A stretch of DNA of 63,994 nt, counting the filler, from Candidatus Hydrogenedentota bacterium (GTDB taxonomy: Bacteria; JBFMHD01), in NCBI GenBank assembly GCA_040752395.1. It is 8 parts of 8 records of this genome, joined end to end, with 100 filler letters (N's around TTAATTAATTAA, not from the genome) between each part and the next. Parts side by side here need not be neighbours in the genome. Positions count along the whole stretch, not along the records: positions 40,537 to 46,816 come from JBFMHD010000163.1; 7 more parts are not named here. One strand, given 5' to 3'. Below, one piece after another: positions 21,103 through 59,652 of this stretch (position 1 is the first letter of the stretch; every line of letters starts with the position of its first letter). Below the pieces are notes generated by a model, which ran no database searches, had not been told where the DNA came from, and saw nothing but the letters and a program-made list of their open reading frames with translations. Position numbers and translations under genes: made by a program.

Positions 21103-21202
21103 NNNNNNNNNNNNNNNNNNNNNNNNNNNNNNNNNNNNNNNNNNNNTTAATTAATTAANNNNNNNNNNNNNNNNNNNNNNNNNNNNNNNNNNNNNNNNNN
21201 NN
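21103..21202. other. artificial contig spacer (also 27577-27676, 34031-34130, 40437-40536, 46817-46916, 53189-53288, 59460-59559)
   Basis: Identical N44-TTAATTAATTAA-N44 six-frame-stop linker at all seven sites. Confidence 0.99.
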
Positions 21203-27334: not shown

Positions 27335-27676
27335 AATAAATTTCTTTTTCTAATTTCAATAATATCAATACTTTTATATCCAATTCTAAAAAATAGTCTT
27401 ATTAGTATAGCATAAACTTGAAAAAAAATCAATACCAATTTTATTAAATTTTTTATAGGCTAAAACTGGGTATAAAGATAGTCTTTTAAAAATATATCTA
27501 TAAGCCCACCTAAAAAACCATACCAGCATAATATAACTAAAATACTAATAACGAATCCGAATTCCTGAGATAAAATNNNNNNNNNNNNNNNNNNNNNNNN
27601 NNNNNNNNNNNNNNNNNNNNTTAATTAATTAANNNNNNNNNNNNNNNNNNNNNNNNNNNNNNNNNNNNNNNNNNNN

Positions 27677-34030: not shown

Positions 34031-34410
34031 NNNNNNNNNNNNNNNNNNNNNNNNNNNNNNNNNNNNNNNNNNNNTTAATTAATTAANNNNNNNNNNNNNN
34101 NNNNNNNNNNNNNNNNNNNNNNNNNNNNNNTTACTTTAGGAAATATAAGTAATACTTTCAACGATAATGTATCCTCATCAACTTAATTTGCTTTATTTAG
34201 ATATTCAAAATAGAGAGAAATGTCAAAGAAAAAGCAAATAAGGTAATCAATGATTTGGTTAATTTTTTTCTGGTTTTACTATGGGTTATAGGCTCGATTC
34301 TTTCAATGATAAGACAATCTTCAAGGATTTGAAAATATGACGCAATAGTGGTATGAGCCACACCGTGGGAATTGTATTATATCAAGCTTCAGGAAAAAAT
34401 TGGTAATTAA

Positions 34411-40237: not shown

Positions 40238-40536
40238 CTTTGTGGCTTTGCTCCATAGTAAATTGTAAATTTATTTGCCTATTCGCTGTCTCTGGATTCG
40301 CTACTACTTTAATTTTTTATCTTTGTGTCTTAAAATAACGTTTCAGCCCCTACTGTATTATAATTATCGGATTTTTCAACAAAAATCTATATTATATTTT
40401 TTCTTGCCAGTTTGCGATATTTAAATATACTTCCAANNNNNNNNNNNNNNNNNNNNNNNNNNNNNNNNNNNNNNNNNNNNTTAATTAATTAANNNNNNNN
40501 NNNNNNNNNNNNNNNNNNNNNNNNNNNNNNNNNNNN

Positions 40537-40600
40537 CCCATCCCCTATGAGCCATCCCCTAATATCCTTTGCGCCTTTGAAAGTAAAAAGTTAGAAGTAT
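40537..40600. repeat. repeat module CCCATCCCCTATGASCCATCCCCTAATAT plus E remnant
   Basis: Matches 63836-63875; lies at a contig start. Confidence 0.8.
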
Positions 40601-40646
40601 CATATAATCCGCAAAAAGCGGATATTGTTTTTTATATTATCAGATT

Positions 40647-41322
40647 TTAAAAAAAAGTAAAGTCATTTTTATTAATCAACTTTTTTATATCATCATTGTA
40701 TGGTAGAAGCCATAGTAGTGCTAATAATAAGAGAGTGATACTTAAAGATATTCCCAGCTTGTGCTCCATTTTAGCAGATAGTGTTAAAATTAAATTTAAG
40801 ATAACATCCAGCCCCAAAAATGGTGGCTTAATATACAAAAGAGTACTGCATAAAGAAAGGTGACAAACAATCCACATATTCAAAAAACGTTACGGAAATC
40901 CCGCAAAATATAGTTGCATAAAGACCTATATTTTTATTAATAACAAGCGAGATTATTTTATAGAAAAAATATAATCCAGAAACAGAAAATAATACTGCGA
41001 TAATTTTAAGAAAGTAAAAATCGTCAAGAATATATTTCATTAAGAATCCATTAATGATAGCAGATAACGGCGGGTAATGAGTATAATACCCTATTTCACT
41101 TTCAGTACCATGACTTGCACCGAGATAACCGGGATGATAATACGTTAAAAGATAATGTTTAAAAAATCCTTCATCTTTAAAATGCCTTGCTGCGACTAAA
41201 TTTTGTGCATCACCTATAGCCCATGCGCTCCAGCGATATTCATTTAATGTTCGTACTGCTGAAAAAATAAATATTATTAAAAGGAAAAATAAGACTAAGA
41301 TATGAGGTTTACGATCAACCAT
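40647..41322 (-). pseudogene. broken ArnT/PMT-like (GT-C) membrane glycosyltransferase
   Basis: YYTHYPPLS N-terminal motif; the frame ends after about 164 aa and a short hydrophobic ORF continues in another frame; far shorter than typical family members. Confidence 0.55.
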
Positions 41323-43258
41323 TCTTTGGCACATCTCTAATATAATTCAATTTACCGCCTGCTTTTAATATAGTTTTTTCTCTATCAGATGCGAGTAATT
41401 TTAATGTGATTCTGGTTTTATCTTTCAGGGATAGAACCTCAATTTTGCCTTTGTCGATAGTCAGGAGCATATCATTAAATTCAAGTTCATCATTTAAATC
41501 AATTTTTTCATAATCAGTTGAGTTTTCAAAAACAAGTGGTATAATCCCAAAATTTATGAGGTTGTCTCTATGTATACGGGCAAATGATTTAGCTATAATA
41601 GCTTTAATCCCAAGATACATAGGTGCGAGTGCTGCATGTTCTCTACTCGAGCCCTGACCATAGTTTTCGCCACCAATGATAATACCATATTTACCCTGTC
41701 CCTTTGTCTCTAATGCACGTTTGTAAAAAGTCGTATCAATCCCACTGTAAACAAATTCAGCTATTTTAGGGATATTAGACCTTAATGGTAAAACCTTTGC
41801 ACCAGCTGGCATTATATGGTCAGTAGTAATATTATCCTGAACCTTTAATATCACCTTTGCGATAAAATTATCTTTGATACCTTCATTAACAGGCAACGGC
41901 GCTATATTGGGTCCGCGAATAATTTCTATTTTTTCTTCATCTTTTGCAGGCGATATAATCATAGAATCGTCAATCAGAAATTTCGCTGAAGATTTTATTC
42001 TTTTTCTTTTACCAAGAGTTCGTGGGTCTGTAATTACGCCGGTTAGAGCAGAGGCACAGGCTGTCTCTACACTTACAAGATAAACTTGAGCAGACTTTGT
42101 TCCGCTTCTTGCTTCGAAGTTTCTGTTAAAAGTTCGTAAGGATATTCCATTTGTATTTGGCGCCAGCCCCATCCCGATACACGGTCCACAGGCTGTCTCA
42201 AGCACACGAGCACCAGCCCGATATAACTCTTTTAATCCGCCATTTTTAGCAAGCATCATAAGAACCTGACGCGAGCCTGGAGCTAATGCGAAACTTACCT
42301 CAGGATGGACATAATTTCCTTCGAGTATCTTAACAGCTGTCATAATATCACTAAAAGACGAGTTTGTACAGGAACCAATAAGTATCTGATTAATTTTAGT
42401 TCCGGTAACTTCTCTTACTGGTTTAACATTATCTGGTGAATGCGGGCAAGCAATCAAAGGTTCAATTTCTGAGAGATTTATCTCTATGGTGGCATCATAT
42501 CTTGCATCATCGTCAGGCAGTATCTCAACAAAATCTTTTTCTCTATTCTGTCTTGATAGCCAATCATAAGTAATTTTATCACTGGGGAATATAGAGCTGG
42601 TGGCACCAAGTTCAGCACCCATATTCGTTATTGTAGCTCGCTGTGGAACAGAAAGAGTATTTACACCGCTACCTGTATATTCAAATATTTTACCAACGCC
42701 ACCTTTAACAGAGAGTCGGCGAAGAACCTCAAGAATAATATCTTTAGCACTCGACCACTCGTTCAAGCGACCTGTAAGTCTGATATTAACTATTTCAGGC
42801 ATCTTAAGATAAAACGGCATACCAGCCATAGCAAGCGCTATATCAAGCCCACCCACGCCAATAGCAAGCATTCCAATCCCACCAGCTGTAGGTGTGTGGC
42901 TGTCTGACCCAAGTAAAGTTTTTCCCGCGATTCCAAACCGTTCCAGATGAACCTGATGACAGATACCATTCCCGGGTTTAGAAAAATATACACCGTATTT
43001 TTTAGCTATGGTTTGAAGAAATAAATGGTCATCAGCATTCTCAAACCCGGTTTGTAAAGTATTATGGTCTATATAACTCACAGATAACTCAGTCTTTACT
43101 TTGGGGATGCCAATAGCCTCGAACTGCAAGTATGCCATAGTACCGGTCGCGTCCTGGGTCAGGGTCTGGTCAATTTTTAAGCCTATCTCCTGTCCTTTAA
43201 CCGGTTCACCGCTTACAATATGGTTTCTAATTATTTTTTCAGTTACTGATAAAGCCAT
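41315..43258 (-). CDS. aconitate hydratase (~650-aa type)
   Basis: QDATGTMA, GICHQVH, GSDSHT, GSCTNS, CGPCIG, TTDHI, YGQGSSREHA. Confidence 0.93.
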   Translation of the reverse strand: MALSVTEKIIRNHIVSGEPVKGQEIGLKIDQTLTQDATGTMAYLQFEAIGIPKVKTELSVSYIDHNTLQTGFENADDHLFLQTIAKKYGVYFSKPGNGICHQVHLERFGIAGKTLLGSDSHTPTAGGIGMLAIGVGGLDIALAMAGMPFYLKMPEIVNIRLTGRLNEWSSAKDIILEVLRRLSVKGGVGKIFEYTGSGVNTLSVPQRATITNMGAELGATSSIFPSDKITYDWLSRQNREKDFVEILPDDDARYDATIEINLSEIEPLIACPHSPDNVKPVREVTGTKINQILIGSCTNSSFSDIMTAVKILEGNYVHPEVSFALAPGSRQVLMMLAKNGGLKELYRAGARVLETACGPCIGMGLAPNTNGISLRTFNRNFEARSGTKSAQVYLVSVETACASALTGVITDPRTLGKRKRIKSSAKFLIDDSMIISPAKDEEKIEIIRGPNIAPLPVNEGIKDNFIAKVILKVQDNITTDHIMPAGAKVLPLRSNIPKIAEFVYSGIDTTFYKRALETKGQGKYGIIIGGENYGQGSSREHAALAPMYLGIKAIIAKSFARIHRDNLINFGIIPLVFENSTDYEKIDLNDELEFNDMLLTIDKGKIEVLSLKDKTRITLKLLASDREKTILKAGGKLNYIRDVPKNG

Positions 43259-43271
43259 TGTCGCTTCGCTC

Positions 43272-44585
43272 CTATACTACTCCTGTTTTCAAGTTTTCGT
43301 ATTCTAATGCATTGTTAATAGCATTAGCAAGTAGAGTGGATGCGAGTCGTGCTATGAGTTTATCCTTTTTCAAGAAGGGCTTATTATTAATTTTATTCCG
43401 AATCATAAAGACGCCAATGACCCTGCCTTTCGCAACTAATGCTGCAATGAGTGCTACCCCTGGTTGCGGGTCATCAACAATAGTTGTGGTCCCGAATTCA
43501 GCAGTTAAACCTATATCGCTCTGTCCAACTTTAACTCTGATTGTTGAGAGTTCACTTTCAGAGATAACACCATTTTCATCATACCCGATTTTACCCACAA
43601 GTTCGTTGGTAGCCGAGTCAAGCAAAAAGAGGGTCATAATTCTTACTTTCATCAACCTCACAATCGAACCCACAGCCATCTGTAGAACCTCACTTAAATC
43701 AAGTGTTGCGCCGATACGTTTAGCAATATCAAGCAGGTTAAAAAATTCCTGACCTGTTAATGGTTGTGGTCCTTCTTCACCGCTTTCCCCTGTTTCAACT
43801 TCTTTTTTCATTTTATCTATTTCGTGCTTGTATTTTCTCTCAAGTTCTAATTTAATATCTGATATAATTTCTTCGGTACCATCATTAATATTTTTACTTA
43901 TAAAAAGGCTTGCAATAATCACAGAAGATATAAGAACAATCGAGATTAAAAGTATAAAATTTCGAAGCTGAACAAAATCATAAAAGCTATCAACAGAGAA
44001 CCCCACCCTGATGGCCCCCCATACAATAGAGTAATTATTAATATTTATAGGAACTATTACATCAAGTACATCTCTGCCGCTACTTTTCAATCTTCGTTCA
44101 GTGCGTGTAAGCTGAGGCGGTATCTCTTGATAATTTGTTATCTCACCATCAGCGGTTCTTAATTTATGCAAACCTGCCTGCTGGTCGGCAAGTTCTGTTT
44201 TAACTCTTATTTTCTTGTAAACTTTTTGTTCGATCTCATCAACTTCAGCCCTTGTAATTTTACCAGAAAACTCTTCAGCAAGCGGAACACCATCACCATC
44301 AAGTATATATACATACACTATCTCGCCCTGCTCGCCTATATCACCTATTGTATTAGCCACAGCATCTCTTAAGGAACTTATATCGTTCTCTGCGATTTGT
44401 TTAGCATTGGATAATGCCATAATTTTGGGTATAAGTTCTGTTCTTCTTATAATCTCTTGTTCAAACTTTTCTTTATCAATATAATAAACAATAAAAACGA
44501 TTATAATAGCAAGTATAACATTCAAAAGAGAGATGCCAATCACTTTAAAGCCGATGTTTAAATACTTTAATCTCTCCTCAGCCAC
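43272..44585 (-). CDS. 2-TM sensor-like protein with a C-terminal GAF domain
   Basis: TM - Cache-like periplasmic region - TM, then IGATLDLSEVL..IGVFMIRNK..AINNALEYE GAF pattern. Confidence 0.75.
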   Translation of the reverse strand: MAEERLKYLNIGFKVIGISLLNVILAIIIVFIVYYIDKEKFEQEIIRRTELIPKIMALSNAKQIAENDISSLRDAVANTIGDIGEQGEIVYVYILDGDGVPLAEEFSGKITRAEVDEIEQKVYKKIRVKTELADQQAGLHKLRTADGEITNYQEIPPQLTRTERRLKSSGRDVLDVIVPININNYSIVWGAIRVGFSVDSFYDFVQLRNFILLISIVLISSVIIASLFISKNINDGTEEIISDIKLELERKYKHEIDKMKKEVETGESGEEGPQPLTGQEFFNLLDIAKRIGATLDLSEVLQMAVGSIVRLMKVRIMTLFLLDSATNELVGKIGYDENGVISESELSTIRVKVGQSDIGLTAEFGTTTIVDDPQPGVALIAALVAKGRVIGVFMIRNKINNKPFLKKDKLIARLASTLLANAINNALEYENLKTGVV

Positions 44586-44592
44586 TATATCA

Positions 44593-44847
44593 CTCCTCTG
44601 AAAAACGCTGTAACTCTAATAAAATCAAATAGAAGCAAGAAGCAAGATAACGGAAGAAGTGAGAGGTATCAGGACGGGCTACAGGCTACAGGCTACGGAC
44701 TACAGCCGGCTGGAGCCAAAAGCCCGGAGCCTGCTGAAAAGTCTCGAGTCTTGAGTCTTGAGTCTTGTTTTGACTCACGACTCTTTTCATACTTTGTGCC
44801 TCTGTGCCTCTGTGCCTCTGTGCCTTTCCTTTGAATCTTTCATCCTT
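44593..44847 (-). repeat. modular repeat array (TGAAAGAT)-E-D-B-A-C
   Basis: Collinear with 62229-62425 apart from unit copy numbers. Confidence 0.94.
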
Positions 44848-46815
44848 TTAATCCACAGTTATTTTGTCTTTAATTTTATTATACAACTCTTCGTCAATAC
44901 CCGGGACATTCAGTAAACCTTCGTTCTTTTTAAAACTTCCTTTTGAATCACGATAAGCTACAATCATTCTCGCCTGATATTCGCTAATACCCAATGTTTT
45001 CATCAGTTCTGTATACTCTGCTTTGTTTATATTAACTTTAACCTCTTCCTTAATTTTTTCCTCTTTTACTACTCTTTCTTCCTTTTGTGGTTTCACTTTT
45101 ACCTCAATCTTTGGTTCTTCTATGTATAAGTACTCAGTTAATTCAGGATGCGATTCTTTATCAATACCTGGTACATTATATACATCCTCAACTTTTTTAT
45201 ACAATCCATATTCATCTCTGTAAGCGATTATAAGCATAGCCTCGAATTTAGTAAGTCCTGGTATTGTTTCTAATTCTTTTAACTGGGCTGTGTTCAAATT
45301 GACCTTTGTAATAGTTTCTTTTTTTTCAACAGGCTTAATGACTTCTATCTTTTCTTTTGGTTTTTCAATTTTTCGTTCCTCTGCAGGTATTTTTACTTTT
45401 TCTTTTTCTTCGGGTTTTACTTGCGGGATTCTTTCTTTTGGAACTTTAGTTTCGACCACATAGAGATAAGGTCTTGCTAATCTGTATATATCTTCATTAA
45501 CTCCAGGGACAAGCAGTAAATCCTCAAGCTGTCTAAAATTACCGTATTTTTCTCTATAAGCTACTATAAGTTTAGCAATAGCTTCATCAATACCAGGTAT
45601 TTTTTTAAGTTCTTCGAAATTTGCAGTATTCAGGTTTAAGAATATTTTTTCTTTTTCTATACCAATCGGCTGGTCAGGACCATTAAAGTCAACAACATAA
45701 TCAGATAATAAAGGATATTTAGCTTTTTCGTCTTCCATCTGGGCAACATAAGCTTCTGGCCGAATTATTCTCGGAGTTATAAAAATAAGAGTTTCATTAT
45801 TGACTCGATTAGTAGTTTTTGTTTTAAATAAATTACCAAGTACAGGGATATCACCCAGAACCGGGACCTTGCTTACTGTTACATCTTCTGACCCCTGAAT
45901 CAATCCGCCAATTATTAAAGTATAACCATCCTGAATCAAGACTTTAGTATTTGCGCTGCTTGAGCTTACTGGCACCTGCCCGGTTGACGTAGGTTTGCCA
46001 GCAGGTATGTCAATCTGTGGGTTCACCTCAAGTTCAATAATATTGTCATCACCTACATGAGGTGTAACTGTAAGCGTTATAGGTACTCGCTGAGTACTTG
46101 GGATCTGGTAAGGTTGACCCGTAACCGGGTCTTTTTCAATTGTATATGTTGGGAACTCCTGTCCGATATCAATAGTAGCCTCTTTATTATCAAGTACTAC
46201 AACCTTTGGACTTGCGATGACATTCACAGAGGTGTATTGAGCTAATGCATTGAGTAAGCCCTGTAAATCGCCAACAGAGCTCAAAGGGTTATTGGGGTCA
46301 GCAAAATTTACCACAGCAAACCTTAATGTTGCGCCAACATTTGCAGTAGAACCAATATTCATTTTTATATATTCATCTGTCCCGAATCTCAGGTTCTCAT
46401 TAATAAATTTTAAGCTCGGTATATACTGCCACTCAATACCAAGAGACTCAGCATTTGATAATTGAACACTTGCAACAACCGCTTCAATTAATACCTGTGG
46501 GATACGGCAATCAAGGTGTTCTAACACTTCGTCTACTTTGTTTATTACTTCAGCTGATGCTGTAATTATAAGCGAATTTGTTCTCTCATCAACCTCAAGT
46601 GTTCCGCCGTTATCAGTTAAAAACGAGGAGATAGGAGTATTTATATCAGCTGGCTGAACAAACTTAAGTTTCCGAACGACAGTTACCCTCTTAGTATCAA
46701 GTTCTTTAACTACATCAGCTATTTTAGTGTATATCTTTTCATCATCGATAAATGCTACGGCATTCTGCTGGTCTAATGCAAAAAAATTGATTCCCGGGAA
46801 TAAATCTGTAAGGGT
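44848..46815 (-). CDS. secretin (GspD/PilQ family) with three C-terminal ComEA-like helix-hairpin-helix domains (5' truncated)
   Basis: Frame is open to the contig edge (..VDERTNSLII.. secretin N domain); QVLIEA, IIGGLI, KVPVLGDIPVLGNLFK, IFITPRII; then 3x (L/V)N(L/I)NxAxxxEL..A..I(V/I)AYR..G.(F/Y)....L..VPG. Confidence 0.88.
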   Translation of the reverse strand, partial: TLTDLFPGINFFALDQQNAVAFIDDEKIYTKIADVVKELDTKRVTVVRKLKFVQPADINTPISSFLTDNGGTLEVDERTNSLIITASAEVINKVDEVLEHLDCRIPQVLIEAVVASVQLSNAESLGIEWQYIPSLKFINENLRFGTDEYIKMNIGSTANVGATLRFAVVNFADPNNPLSSVGDLQGLLNALAQYTSVNVIASPKVVVLDNKEATIDIGQEFPTYTIEKDPVTGQPYQIPSTQRVPITLTVTPHVGDDNIIELEVNPQIDIPAGKPTSTGQVPVSSSSANTKVLIQDGYTLIIGGLIQGSEDVTVSKVPVLGDIPVLGNLFKTKTTNRVNNETLIFITPRIIRPEAYVAQMEDEKAKYPLLSDYVVDFNGPDQPIGIEKEKIFLNLNTANFEELKKIPGIDEAIAKLIVAYREKYGNFRQLEDLLLVPGVNEDIYRLARPYLYVVETKVPKERIPQVKPEEKEKVKIPAEERKIEKPKEKIEVIKPVEKKETITKVNLNTAQLKELETIPGLTKFEAMLIIAYRDEYGLYKKVEDVYNVPGIDKESHPELTEYLYIEEPKIEVKVKPQKEERVVKEEKIKEEVKVNINKAEYTELMKTLGISEYQARMIVAYRDSKGSFKKNEGLLNVPGIDEELYNKIKDKITVD

Positions 46816-46916
46816 TNNNNNNNNNNNNNNNNNNNNNNNNNNNNNNNNNNNNNNNNNNNNTTAATTAATTAANNNNNNNNNNNNNNNNNNNNNNNNNNNN
46901 NNNNNNNNNNNNNNNN

Positions 46917-50111: not shown

Positions 50112-50453
50112 TTATAAAGAGTAAACCATCTTTCCTTTTTGAGATATTTCGCCGGTTATACTAAAACAATCAGGATGATTTAATTCTTCCCGAGTAAAAC
50201 CTAACAAATCTATATTTACCAAGTATGGTATTTTAATTTCTTTTAGACCTGACAATAATATTTTTAAACGATCTATGTCGTCTACCCCTTTAAAACTACT
50301 GGATACTACAGCTAAATCAATATCACTGTATTTATTATAAGATTTTGTTGCACATGAGCCGAATAAAATAACTTTTTCAATCTTGATCTTATTCGATAAT
50401 ACCTTTACTAATTCTTTTACAATTTTTTTAATTGCTGATTTTTTATAAACCAT
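50112..50453 (-). CDS. minimal nucleotidyltransferase
   Basis: LFGSCATKSYNKYSDIDLAV. Confidence 0.88.
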   Translation of the reverse strand: MVYKKSAIKKIVKELVKVLSNKIKIEKVILFGSCATKSYNKYSDIDLAVVSSSFKGVDDIDRLKILLSGLKEIKIPYLVNIDLLGFTREELNHPDCFSITGEISQKGKMVYSL

Positions 50454-50821
50454 CTAATTGTCCTCAATGTTTGATCTAATAATTTTTCTGCATTAAGACG
50501 GTTATAAATTTTTGTATTAAATCTATCTTCTTTATACCGTGCTATGATATAATGCGCATTGGCTAAAATAATAGTTTCATTTATATTATCCGGTAATTCA
50601 ATATGTAACAGATTAACTAATTGGACAAGGTTATGAATAAGAGGTGGCGGTTTTCTTTTTGAATGAATATATGCTGCTTTCAACATCGCTTCTAAAGTTT
50701 GCTGACACATAAACATACAAAAATTCCATCTGCCAGCTTTAAACATCGCTCTGGCTGTTTTTAAATTGTCTTTATAACAATTAATCCAAAAAGTTAAATT
50801 TTTCTTAATGGTATTATTCAC
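50417..50821 (-). CDS. HEPN domain protein
   Basis: FMCQQTLEAMLKA, HNLVQL, YIIARY (HEPN subfamily lacking RX4H). Confidence 0.85.
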   Translation of the reverse strand: MNNTIKKNLTFWINCYKDNLKTARAMFKAGRWNFCMFMCQQTLEAMLKAAYIHSKRKPPPLIHNLVQLVNLLHIELPDNINETIILANAHYIIARYKEDRFNTKIYNRLNAEKLLDQTLRTIRWFIKNQQLKKL

Positions 50822-53188: not shown

Positions 53189-53409
53189 NNNNNNNNNNNN
53201 NNNNNNNNNNNNNNNNNNNNNNNNNNNNNNNNTTAATTAATTAANNNNNNNNNNNNNNNNNNNNNNNNNNNNNNNNNNNNNNNNNNNNTTATGATGTCAG
53301 GTGATAAAACAAATTTGTCTGATTTTAAAATAATATCAGATGCTTATTCATTGAATTGGGCTTTATTCAAAGCATTAAATACCAACGATTTTGTTACTCT
53401 ACAATACTT

Positions 53410-59459: not shown

Positions 59460-59652
59460 NNNNNNNNNNNNNNNNNNNNNNNNNNNNNNNNNNNNNNNNN
59501 NNNTTAATTAATTAANNNNNNNNNNNNNNNNNNNNNNNNNNNNNNNNNNNNNNNNNNNNTTTGTTTTCGGTTATAGGTTATCTGATACTTCTCACTTCTT
59601 ATTTCTTCACCACCTATAACTGAAAGATTACTCTTAATATTAATATATATCG

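Follow-up and report, generated by a model that had tools for sequence, protein, structure and literature searches.

Secretins are, to our knowledge, among the best-studied machines of the outer membrane, and their known variation is found at the N terminus. The gene described here encodes a secretin that carries three helix-hairpin-helix (HhH) domains of the ComEA type at its C terminus, and it lies on the minus strand of a 63,994-nucleotide stretch of DNA (hereafter the window) from a Candidatus Hydrogenedentota bacterium (NCBI GenBank assembly GCA_040752395.1). The closest described systems are the secretins GspD and PilQ and the DNA-binding protein ComEA. GspD (TIGR02517; 5wq7, 5w68, 6hcg) shares with the protein described here the N0/STN domain, the N-type rings, the barrel and a helix that aligns with the S-domain region. 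GspD has four N-type domains, whereas this protein has about 13 of them, together with N-terminal TPR, AMIN and Ig-like parts and a 280-residue tail formed by three HhH domains. PilQ (TIGR02515; V. cholerae 6w6m, P. aeruginosa 6ve2) shares the AMIN, N0 and N-type domains and the barrel, and its fold matches as well as that of GspD, but the giant secretin scores below the PilQ cut-off and has no pilMNOP genes in the 1.1 kb available upstream. The PilQ of Thermus thermophilus reportedly has an extended periplasmic ring stack and serves DNA uptake. ComEA (HHH_3, TIGR00426; 8dss, 8dfk, 2duy) has the same two-hairpin fold as the tail and the same extracytoplasmic location. It is free or membrane-anchored, whereas the tail domains are fused to the secretin in three copies and lack both the second glycine of the GxG hairpins and the lysines at the positions of K166 and K195 of G. 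stearothermophilus ComEA.

A secretin with a ComEA-fold tail is a real, rare and undescribed design. The original prediction, which was made from the sequence of the window, had not recognised this architecture as characterised, and no published description of it was found. A full-text literature search, with supplements outside it, returned no paper describing a secretin with HhH or ComEA-like domains, and the available text of a survey of 197 proteobacterial type IVa pilus (T4aP) secretins presents only AMIN-N0-N3-secretin architectures and no secretin–HhH architecture (PMC7545093).

Gene structure and conservation of the fusion

The window consists of eight contigs (C68-C74 and C140) of a 349-contig genome bin placed end to end, and contig C72, with 6,280 bases, occupies positions 40537-46816. 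An artificial spacer with stops in all six frames, N44-TTAATTAATTAA-N44, comes directly after base 46816 and is present in seven copies in the window. Read on the minus strand, positions 46815 to 44851 encode 655 residues with zero stops, and the stop codon is found at 44848-44850. For the feature 44848..46815, as it was originally delimited, the frame and its stop stand, whereas position 46815 is not a gene start, the frame leaving the end of C72 there. The open reading frame (ORF) listing gives only an ORF of 559 amino acids (aa) from an internal GTG, because the secretin frame runs off this contig. A Pfam scan of the frame finds Secretin_N, Secretin (146.4 bits against a cut-off of 27.5) and three HHH_3 domains (172.6 bits combined against a cut-off of 27), all with scores far above chance. 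Translation and scan bear out the claim that a secretin and three ComEA-like HhH units are encoded in one frame, and the peptides by which they had been noticed (IFITPRII, LNLNTANFEELKKIPGI, VNLNTAQLKELETIPGL and VNINKAEYTELMKTLGI), as well as the K/E/P-rich linkers between the HhH units, are all found in the translation (Table 1).

This frame is the C-terminal third of a giant secretin of about 2,006 aa. The match for full-length relatives in a tblastn search is contig C105, which has a minus-strand frame of 1,408 codons, with an ATG start and a hydrophobic, signal-peptide-like N terminus, that leaves the contig at its low end. Bases 1-173 of C105 are identical to the final 173 bases of C72 but for one base, and the N and C protein pieces overlap by 57 residues with 98% identity (C105:2-172 against query residues 1-57), therefore the whole gene has approximately 1,408 + 655 - 57 = 2,006 codons. 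The N piece (C105) and the window piece (C72) were analysed apart and were never joined. The N piece has a TPR at residues 50-89 (Pfam), an AMIN domain at residues 167-253 (22.4 bits against a cut-off of 20.5), an N0/STN domain at residues 533-577 (31.5 bits against a cut-off of 28.4) and five stretches of Secretin_N that sum to 197.7 bits. A repeat profile, iterated on the giant secretin and ten relatives, finds 12 consecutive N-type units of about 65 residues at positions 607-1401 of the N piece and one more at residues 42-112 of the window piece. The whole protein has by this count about 13 tandem N-type ring domains and the relatives have 6-23, numbers that come from a profile that may drift, though the units are contiguous. 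The structure of the gene and the fusion itself are secure, very close to certainty.

The fusion is conserved. Run exhaustively against 1.84 billion representative proteins, phmmer gives 57,001 matches at E <= 0.001, and the nine best matches after the protein itself have 283.7-342.1 bits and 1,519-3,242 residues. Ten of the 14 matches scanned with Pfam (P0121-P0129 and P0137) have a Secretin domain followed by three or four HHH_3 domains, and these same ten relatives, which represent ten 50%-identity clusters, have many Secretin_N stretches, often with Big_1, TPR, AMIN or STN in front. P0126 aligns to query residues 182-654 in a single stretch that spans the secretin–HhH junction, and in an alignment of 11 family sequences Asp376, Gly379 and Pro383, which are located just past the post-barrel helix, are invariant. 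In a genome scan with one genome per species, in which 80 of 500 secretin-encoding stretches were retained, the whole query is covered in four of the 80 loci, two from Candidatus Hydrogenedentota/Hydrogenedentes and two from genomes named 'uncultured bacterium', where the frames have 2,779, 2,789, at least 1,547 and 3,382 codons. A match is also present in all five genomes grouped with one of the covering loci (frames of 889-3,392 aa), and a giant frame with an HhH match is found in G039, one of 40 relatives that are related only at the domain level. In a word-indexed search, six of the seven matches among longer proteins have PF00263 and PF12836, and the sole named one is a 'hypothetical protein' at NCBI. 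PF12836 is present in none of the 119 non-self matches listed at similar length, because every fused member exceeds 1,147 aa. The ESM Atlas gave no secretin family among 10 structure-matched rows, nor a usable feature match.

The possibility that the fusion is an artefact of assembly or gene calling, in which a secretin gene was wrongly joined to a multi-HhH gene, draws on the fragmentation of the bin and on the break of the secretin gene itself at a contig end. Against it, ten 50%-identity clusters and four loci from other assemblies keep the same domain order in one frame, the segment after the barrel has residues that are invariant across the family, and the alignment to P0126 is unbroken across the junction. 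Misassembly, whose detection at this junction would have told against the original prediction, is excluded for practical purposes, and an artefact of any kind retains a negligible probability.

Family members have 1,500-3,400 residues and 6-23 ring domains, and if these rings stack they would build a tube far longer than that of any solved secretin, while the conserved ComEA-fold array at the C terminus is a new place for function on a secretin. Other giant secretins, with 3,695-5,277 residues, are also present among the matches (P0134, P0146, P0148, P0153, P0236 and others). In these proteins about 100 residues or fewer separate the barrel from the C terminus, hence they apparently have no HhH tail, and the occurrence of giant secretins thus extends beyond the HhH-tailed family.

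Secretin class and divergence of the tail domains

The AlphaFold2 (AF2) model of the window piece, built from a 58-row alignment, has a mean predicted local distance difference test (pLDDT) score of 79.5. The last N domain (pLDDT about 90-96) and the barrel are predicted confidently, and the last N domain superposes on XcpQ/GspD N domains with a root-mean-square deviation (rmsd) of 1.1-1.3 over 60-62 residues. The final strand (331-351) is followed by the helices 353-366 and 368-371, by a disordered stretch (373-389) and by three compact HhH domains with pLDDT >90, which have disordered linkers between them. In Foldseek searches the core matches GspD (5wq7_A, E 3.6e-18) and PilQ (6ve2_A, E 1.7e-17). 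The alignments to GspD, PulD and InvG, from secretion systems of types II and III (T2S and T3S), reach model residue 377-378, and those to PilQ end at 353-357. The predicted post-barrel helix (353-371) fits an S-domain-like element in the model; no pilotin was identified.

The GspD model TIGR02517 gives 227.3 and 219.1 bits on the two pieces of the split gene (cut-off 351.35), and its cut-off is passed by both full-length relatives tested (P0127 and P0129, with 364.7 and 375.5 bits), sums that are perhaps inflated by the repeated N domains (3-6 stretches in the relatives). The cut-off of the PilQ model TIGR02515 (284.35) is missed by the pieces, with 184.3 and 78.9 bits, and by the two relatives, with 238.7 and 222.4 bits. 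Curated models favour GspD over PilQ. The AMIN domain at the N terminus is a PilQ trait (PMC7545093) and, set against the best score for GspD and the S-like helix, it suggests that the secretin class may be a GspD/PilQ hybrid. A GspK-like identity of the HhH domains was considered and rejected, as they give only sub-threshold GspK/T2SSK matches and T2SSK was not found genome-wide at E 1e-5 (Pfam; genome 93.84% complete).

The tail domain has the HhH fold with two hairpins and no connector helix. Superposition of HhH domain 1 on ComEA of G. stearothermophilus (8dss_B) gives Z 12.4, an rmsd of 1.1 over 65 residues and 46% identity, and the domain can likewise be superposed on the Tex HhH 3bzc (Z 12.5) and on 2duy (Z 10.1). 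The whole-protein comEA model TIGR01259 is missed by the tail (138.2 bits against a cut-off of 152.35).

The hairpins differ from those of canonical domains. A profile-based extraction yielded 41 tail domains from 11 family proteins, a count that equals that of Pfam, and these were compared with ten other HHH_3 domains of the same genome, leaving out the C57 and C118 proteins, which have the same diverged hairpin type as the secretin tail. The second glycine of hairpin 1 is found in 0/41 tail domains, which have S, T, P or D instead, and that of hairpin 2 also in 0/41, where T occupies the position in 33, whereas the other HHH_3 domains have these glycines in 9/10 and 10/10, respectively. The G-h-G signature is absent from the six hairpins of this protein, and all 82 hairpins of the family are without the second glycine; domains 1-3 of the window read GID/GVN, GLT/GID and GIS/GID. 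A proline directly follows hairpin 2 in 22/41 tail domains and in 1/10 of the others. The position of K195 of G. stearothermophilus ComEA is basic in 0/41 and acidic in 31/41 tail domains (D, E and E in domains 1-3), whereas it is a lysine in 8/10 of the others. At the K166 position, a basic residue is present in 1/41 tail domains (I, E and Q in domains 1-3) and a lysine in 1/10 of the others. The K199 and K201 positions are basic in 24/41 and 32/41 tail domains and in 6/10 and 8/10 of the others, respectively.

Several of these positions are functionally important in ComEA. As reported in the available text of the respective studies, DNA uptake is lost with the changes G60V, G60E and K63E of V. 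cholerae ComEA, and the K62/63A protein fails to shift DNA (PMC3879209), while K164A in B. subtilis ComEA lowers transformation by more than two logs (PMC9747964). B. subtilis K164, which corresponds to the position of G. stearothermophilus K166 and V. cholerae K63, is described there as the best-conserved DNA-contact residue and as no less conserved than the HhH signature (PMC9747964). Net charge and isoelectric point (pI) of the HhH domains were dropped as an argument, as canonical GIG-type domains can be equally acidic. Multi-HHH_3 proteins and nucleases encoded in the same genome (contigs C298, C157 and C212) resemble the tail in having tandem HHH_3 domains and charged linkers and in being exported, but they have canonical hairpins and either adjoin comEC or are fused to Lactamase_B or PLDc_2 nuclease domains. 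By their sequences, the tail domains are a distinct and conserved subfamily of the ComEA fold in which the hairpin glycines and the DNA-contact lysines are lost.

Possible roles of the tail

Solved secretins are 12-15-mers, and by analogy with them the giant secretin would form a gated 12-15-mer pore across the outer membrane, whose periplasmic tube would be unusually long and which would carry 36-45 tail domains. From the N terminus, its parts are a signal-peptide-like start, TPR, AMIN, N0/STN, about 13 N-type rings, the barrel, the S-like helix and the three HhH domains on flexible charged linkers. The position of the S-domain-like helix suggests that the tail emerges at the periplasmic outer face of the barrel and, by analogy with the S domains of T2S and T3S secretins, it would be placed in the periplasm, at the outer face of the barrel just below the outer membrane. 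In this place the HhH domains may act as a flexible multivalent tether or as a docking array for partner proteins or neighbouring subunits, with at most weak binding of polyanions. The loss of the hairpin glycines and DNA-contact lysines makes tethering or docking the most likely role, rather than a ComEA-type DNA ratchet, and we give about even chances to the reading in which the tail is a diverged, non-canonical ComEA-fold array that serves as a flexible periplasmic tether or docking collar.

Several points weigh against a tether or docking collar. No tether partner was identified, and the periplasmic placement is drawn by analogy. According to the available text of a flow cytometry study from 2015, the C termini of two type IV pilus secretins, BfpB and P. 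aeruginosa PilQ, are extracellular (PMC4453517), and the giant secretin has an AMIN domain like that of PilQ. With 138.7 bits, the tail exceeds the cut-off of the ComEA HhH-repeat model TIGR00426 (53.1), its fold can nearly be superposed on that of a DNA-binding ComEA domain, and its K199 and K201 positions are still basic in the majorities given above. One PLD-nuclease-linked HHH_3 domain of the same genome also reads GID in hairpin 1, and only one of the ten other HHH_3 domains has the K166 lysine, so the argument from K166 is weak in this genome. HhH motifs contact DNA mainly via backbone amides, so the loss of side chains is no proof of lost binding, and the avidity of 36-45 copies per pore could make weak DNA binding effective.

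The original prediction proposed a self-ratcheting DNA-uptake pore, in which dozens of periplasmic DNA-binding domains, tethered in a ring, surround a pore that admits DNA, carries its own ComEA and biases movement inward. The part of it that stands is the presence of a secretin and three ComEA-fold domains in one protein, while the ratchet is not favoured and, from the sequence, is possible rather than likely; we hold it doubtful, though with some weight. The match of the tail to the HHH_3 and ComEA HhH-repeat models, its ComEA fold and the two lysine positions that are still mostly basic argue for it, as does the rest of the competence pathway in the genome, which includes two ComEC-type genes, DprA, eight T2SSE-family ATPases and PilM, and many weak binders per pore might act by avidity. 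In the related genome G044 (contig C204), a pseudopilin-like gene is found about 11 kb downstream of the giant secretin, on the same strand, together with three genes for T2SSE-family ATPases (PilB-PilB-PilT-like). In G041, however, about 185 kb separate the giant secretin from the closest T2SSE genes of its contig, and no pilMNOP, ATPase, pilin or comE genes are present in the available flanks of the giant secretin described here (1.1 kb upstream, on C105) or in three of the four related loci. The hairpins and the K195 position of the tail also argue against a ratchet, as the equivalent changes G60E and K63E are those that abolish DNA uptake in V. cholerae (PMC3879209, available text), and so does the proline after hairpin 2. 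The secretin scores better as GspD than as PilQ, the PilQ cut-off being unmet in the fragment and in the two relatives tested, and canonical ComEA-type proteins are encoded separately in the genome. The barrel and a stack of about 13 rings would moreover lie between the lumen and a tail outside the barrel, and DNA inside them would come within reach of the tail only far below; the N-terminal end of the tube would be a better place for a ratchet.

The flow cytometry results on BfpB and PilQ, together with the AMIN domain, also speak for an extracellular C terminus, with the HhH domains as a crown on the cell surface, where DNA from the environment or some other polymer would be captured at the mouth of the pore, and secreted or anchored HHH_3 nucleases of the genome would fit a DNA-scavenging lifestyle. 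The same study reports, in its available text, that the C termini of T2S and T3S secretins are not exposed (PMC4453517), and the giant secretin has its best score with GspD and a post-barrel helix that aligns with the T2S/T3S S-domain region. The motif losses count against DNA binding at the surface as well, and such a crown is very improbable. It is also conceivable, if unlikely, that the tail is a multivalent and deliberately low-affinity DNA-handling collar, with 36-60 diverged ComEA-fold domains per pore on a giant trans-envelope secretin conduit, in which deep-branching bacteria would have merged the channel and the periplasmic DNA receptor for DNA uptake, scavenging or export.

Should the tail bind DNA, the channel is fused to its DNA receptor, and one protein is then enough to test the ratchet model of uptake. 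Should it not, the family is a clean natural example of a ComEA fold put to another use. Either way, the giant secretin is an unstudied envelope machine of Hydrogenedentota-like lineages.

Neighbouring genes and other features

The coordinates of the giant secretin gene, of its parts and of the other features of the window are given in Table 1.

Table 1. Positions of the parts of the giant secretin gene and of other features, counted along the whole window.
Feature	Positions	Strand	Residues of window piece	Remarks
Giant secretin gene, C-terminal 655 codons and stop	44848..46815	minus		open to contig end at 46816
Overlap with low end of contig C105	46643..46815	minus		173 bases, 1 mismatch
Last N-type (Secretin_N, ring-building) domain	46501..46680	minus	46-105	52.8 bits
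Secretin beta-barrel domain	45760..46248	minus	190-352	ends ..IFITPRII
Conserved post-barrel helix, S-domain-like (predicted)	45703..45759	minus	353-371	
HhH domain 1	45454..45639	minus	393-454	hairpins PGID and PGVN
K/E/P-rich linker 1	45304..45453	minus	455-504	pLDDT <50 at 473-499
HhH domain 2	45118..45303	minus	505-566	hairpins PGLT and PGID
K/E-rich linker 2	45037..45117	minus	567-593	pLDDT <50 at 571-588
HhH domain 3	44851..45036	minus	594-655	hairpins LGIS and PGID
Aconitase	41315..43258	minus		downstream of secretin, same strand
Artificial spacers	21103-21202, 27577-27676, 34031-34130, 40437-40536, 46817-46916, 53189-53288, 59460-59559			features touching a spacer are cut by a contig end

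Downstream of the secretin in the window are a gene for a GAF-domain membrane protein and the aconitase gene. The aconitase is 40% identical (E 2e-162) to the one that follows the giant secretin in the Hydrogenedentota locus L033, where it has the same relative place, and the other neighbours are unlike those of L033 (E 0.004 over 33 residues for the upstream ORF and E 3 for the GAF protein). Upstream, C105 has a 129-aa aspartyl-protease-like ORF and a 234-aa ORF without a Pfam match, and in three related loci the upstream gene encodes a large Ig-like repeat protein that ends in TPR. No gspC-M genes are found beside the secretin in the available sequence of C72 and C105, nor within 10 kb on either side in the loci L033, L034 and L044. 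The phylum-rank search around the genome reached no genome but this one, and the 40 relatives are all related at the domain level only, therefore the bin seems to be alone at phylum rank among the species genomes compared; despite this, the secretin-aconitase arrangement is shared with a Hydrogenedentota locus.

A look for comEC, pilins and a standalone comEA had been proposed together with the uptake pore. The genome has the two ComEC-type genes and ComEA-type proteins, whereas no pilus or competence genes are found in the available flanks of the giant secretin. Five secretin genes are present in the genome, one of them on C289 with PilM and an ATPase, and PilM genes are found on contigs C292, C101 and C289. 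The eight T2SSE-family ATPases are above the cut-off, and some are PilT-sized. HHH_3 is expanded, with 17 matches of which 16 are above the cut-off. C12 encodes a classic SLBB+HHH_3 ComEA, and on C298 (1803-6025) comEC is directly followed by genes for two proteins with three HHH_3 domains each. A GYF_2+Lactamase_B (metallo-beta-lactamase)+HHH_3 protein is encoded on C157, two PLD-type nucleases with HHH_3 on C212, and two coiled-coil proteins with HHH_3 on C57 and C118. Handling of DNA outside the cytoplasm is thus clear for this organism, which has stand-alone receptors for it.

A run of two PilB/GspE-sized ATPases and one PilT-sized ATPase is present in all four Hydrogenedentota-like relatives (G041:C1:288510-292405, G042:C110:35617-39630, G043:C52:10396-14238 and G044:C204:1518-5313), and two adjacent PilB-sized genes are found in the genome described here (C37:3411-6564). 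Elsewhere in the window, the minus strand at 50112-50821 has two overlapping ORFs (113 and 134 aa) that resemble, by eye, a toxin-antitoxin pair of the nucleotidyltransferase/HEPN type.

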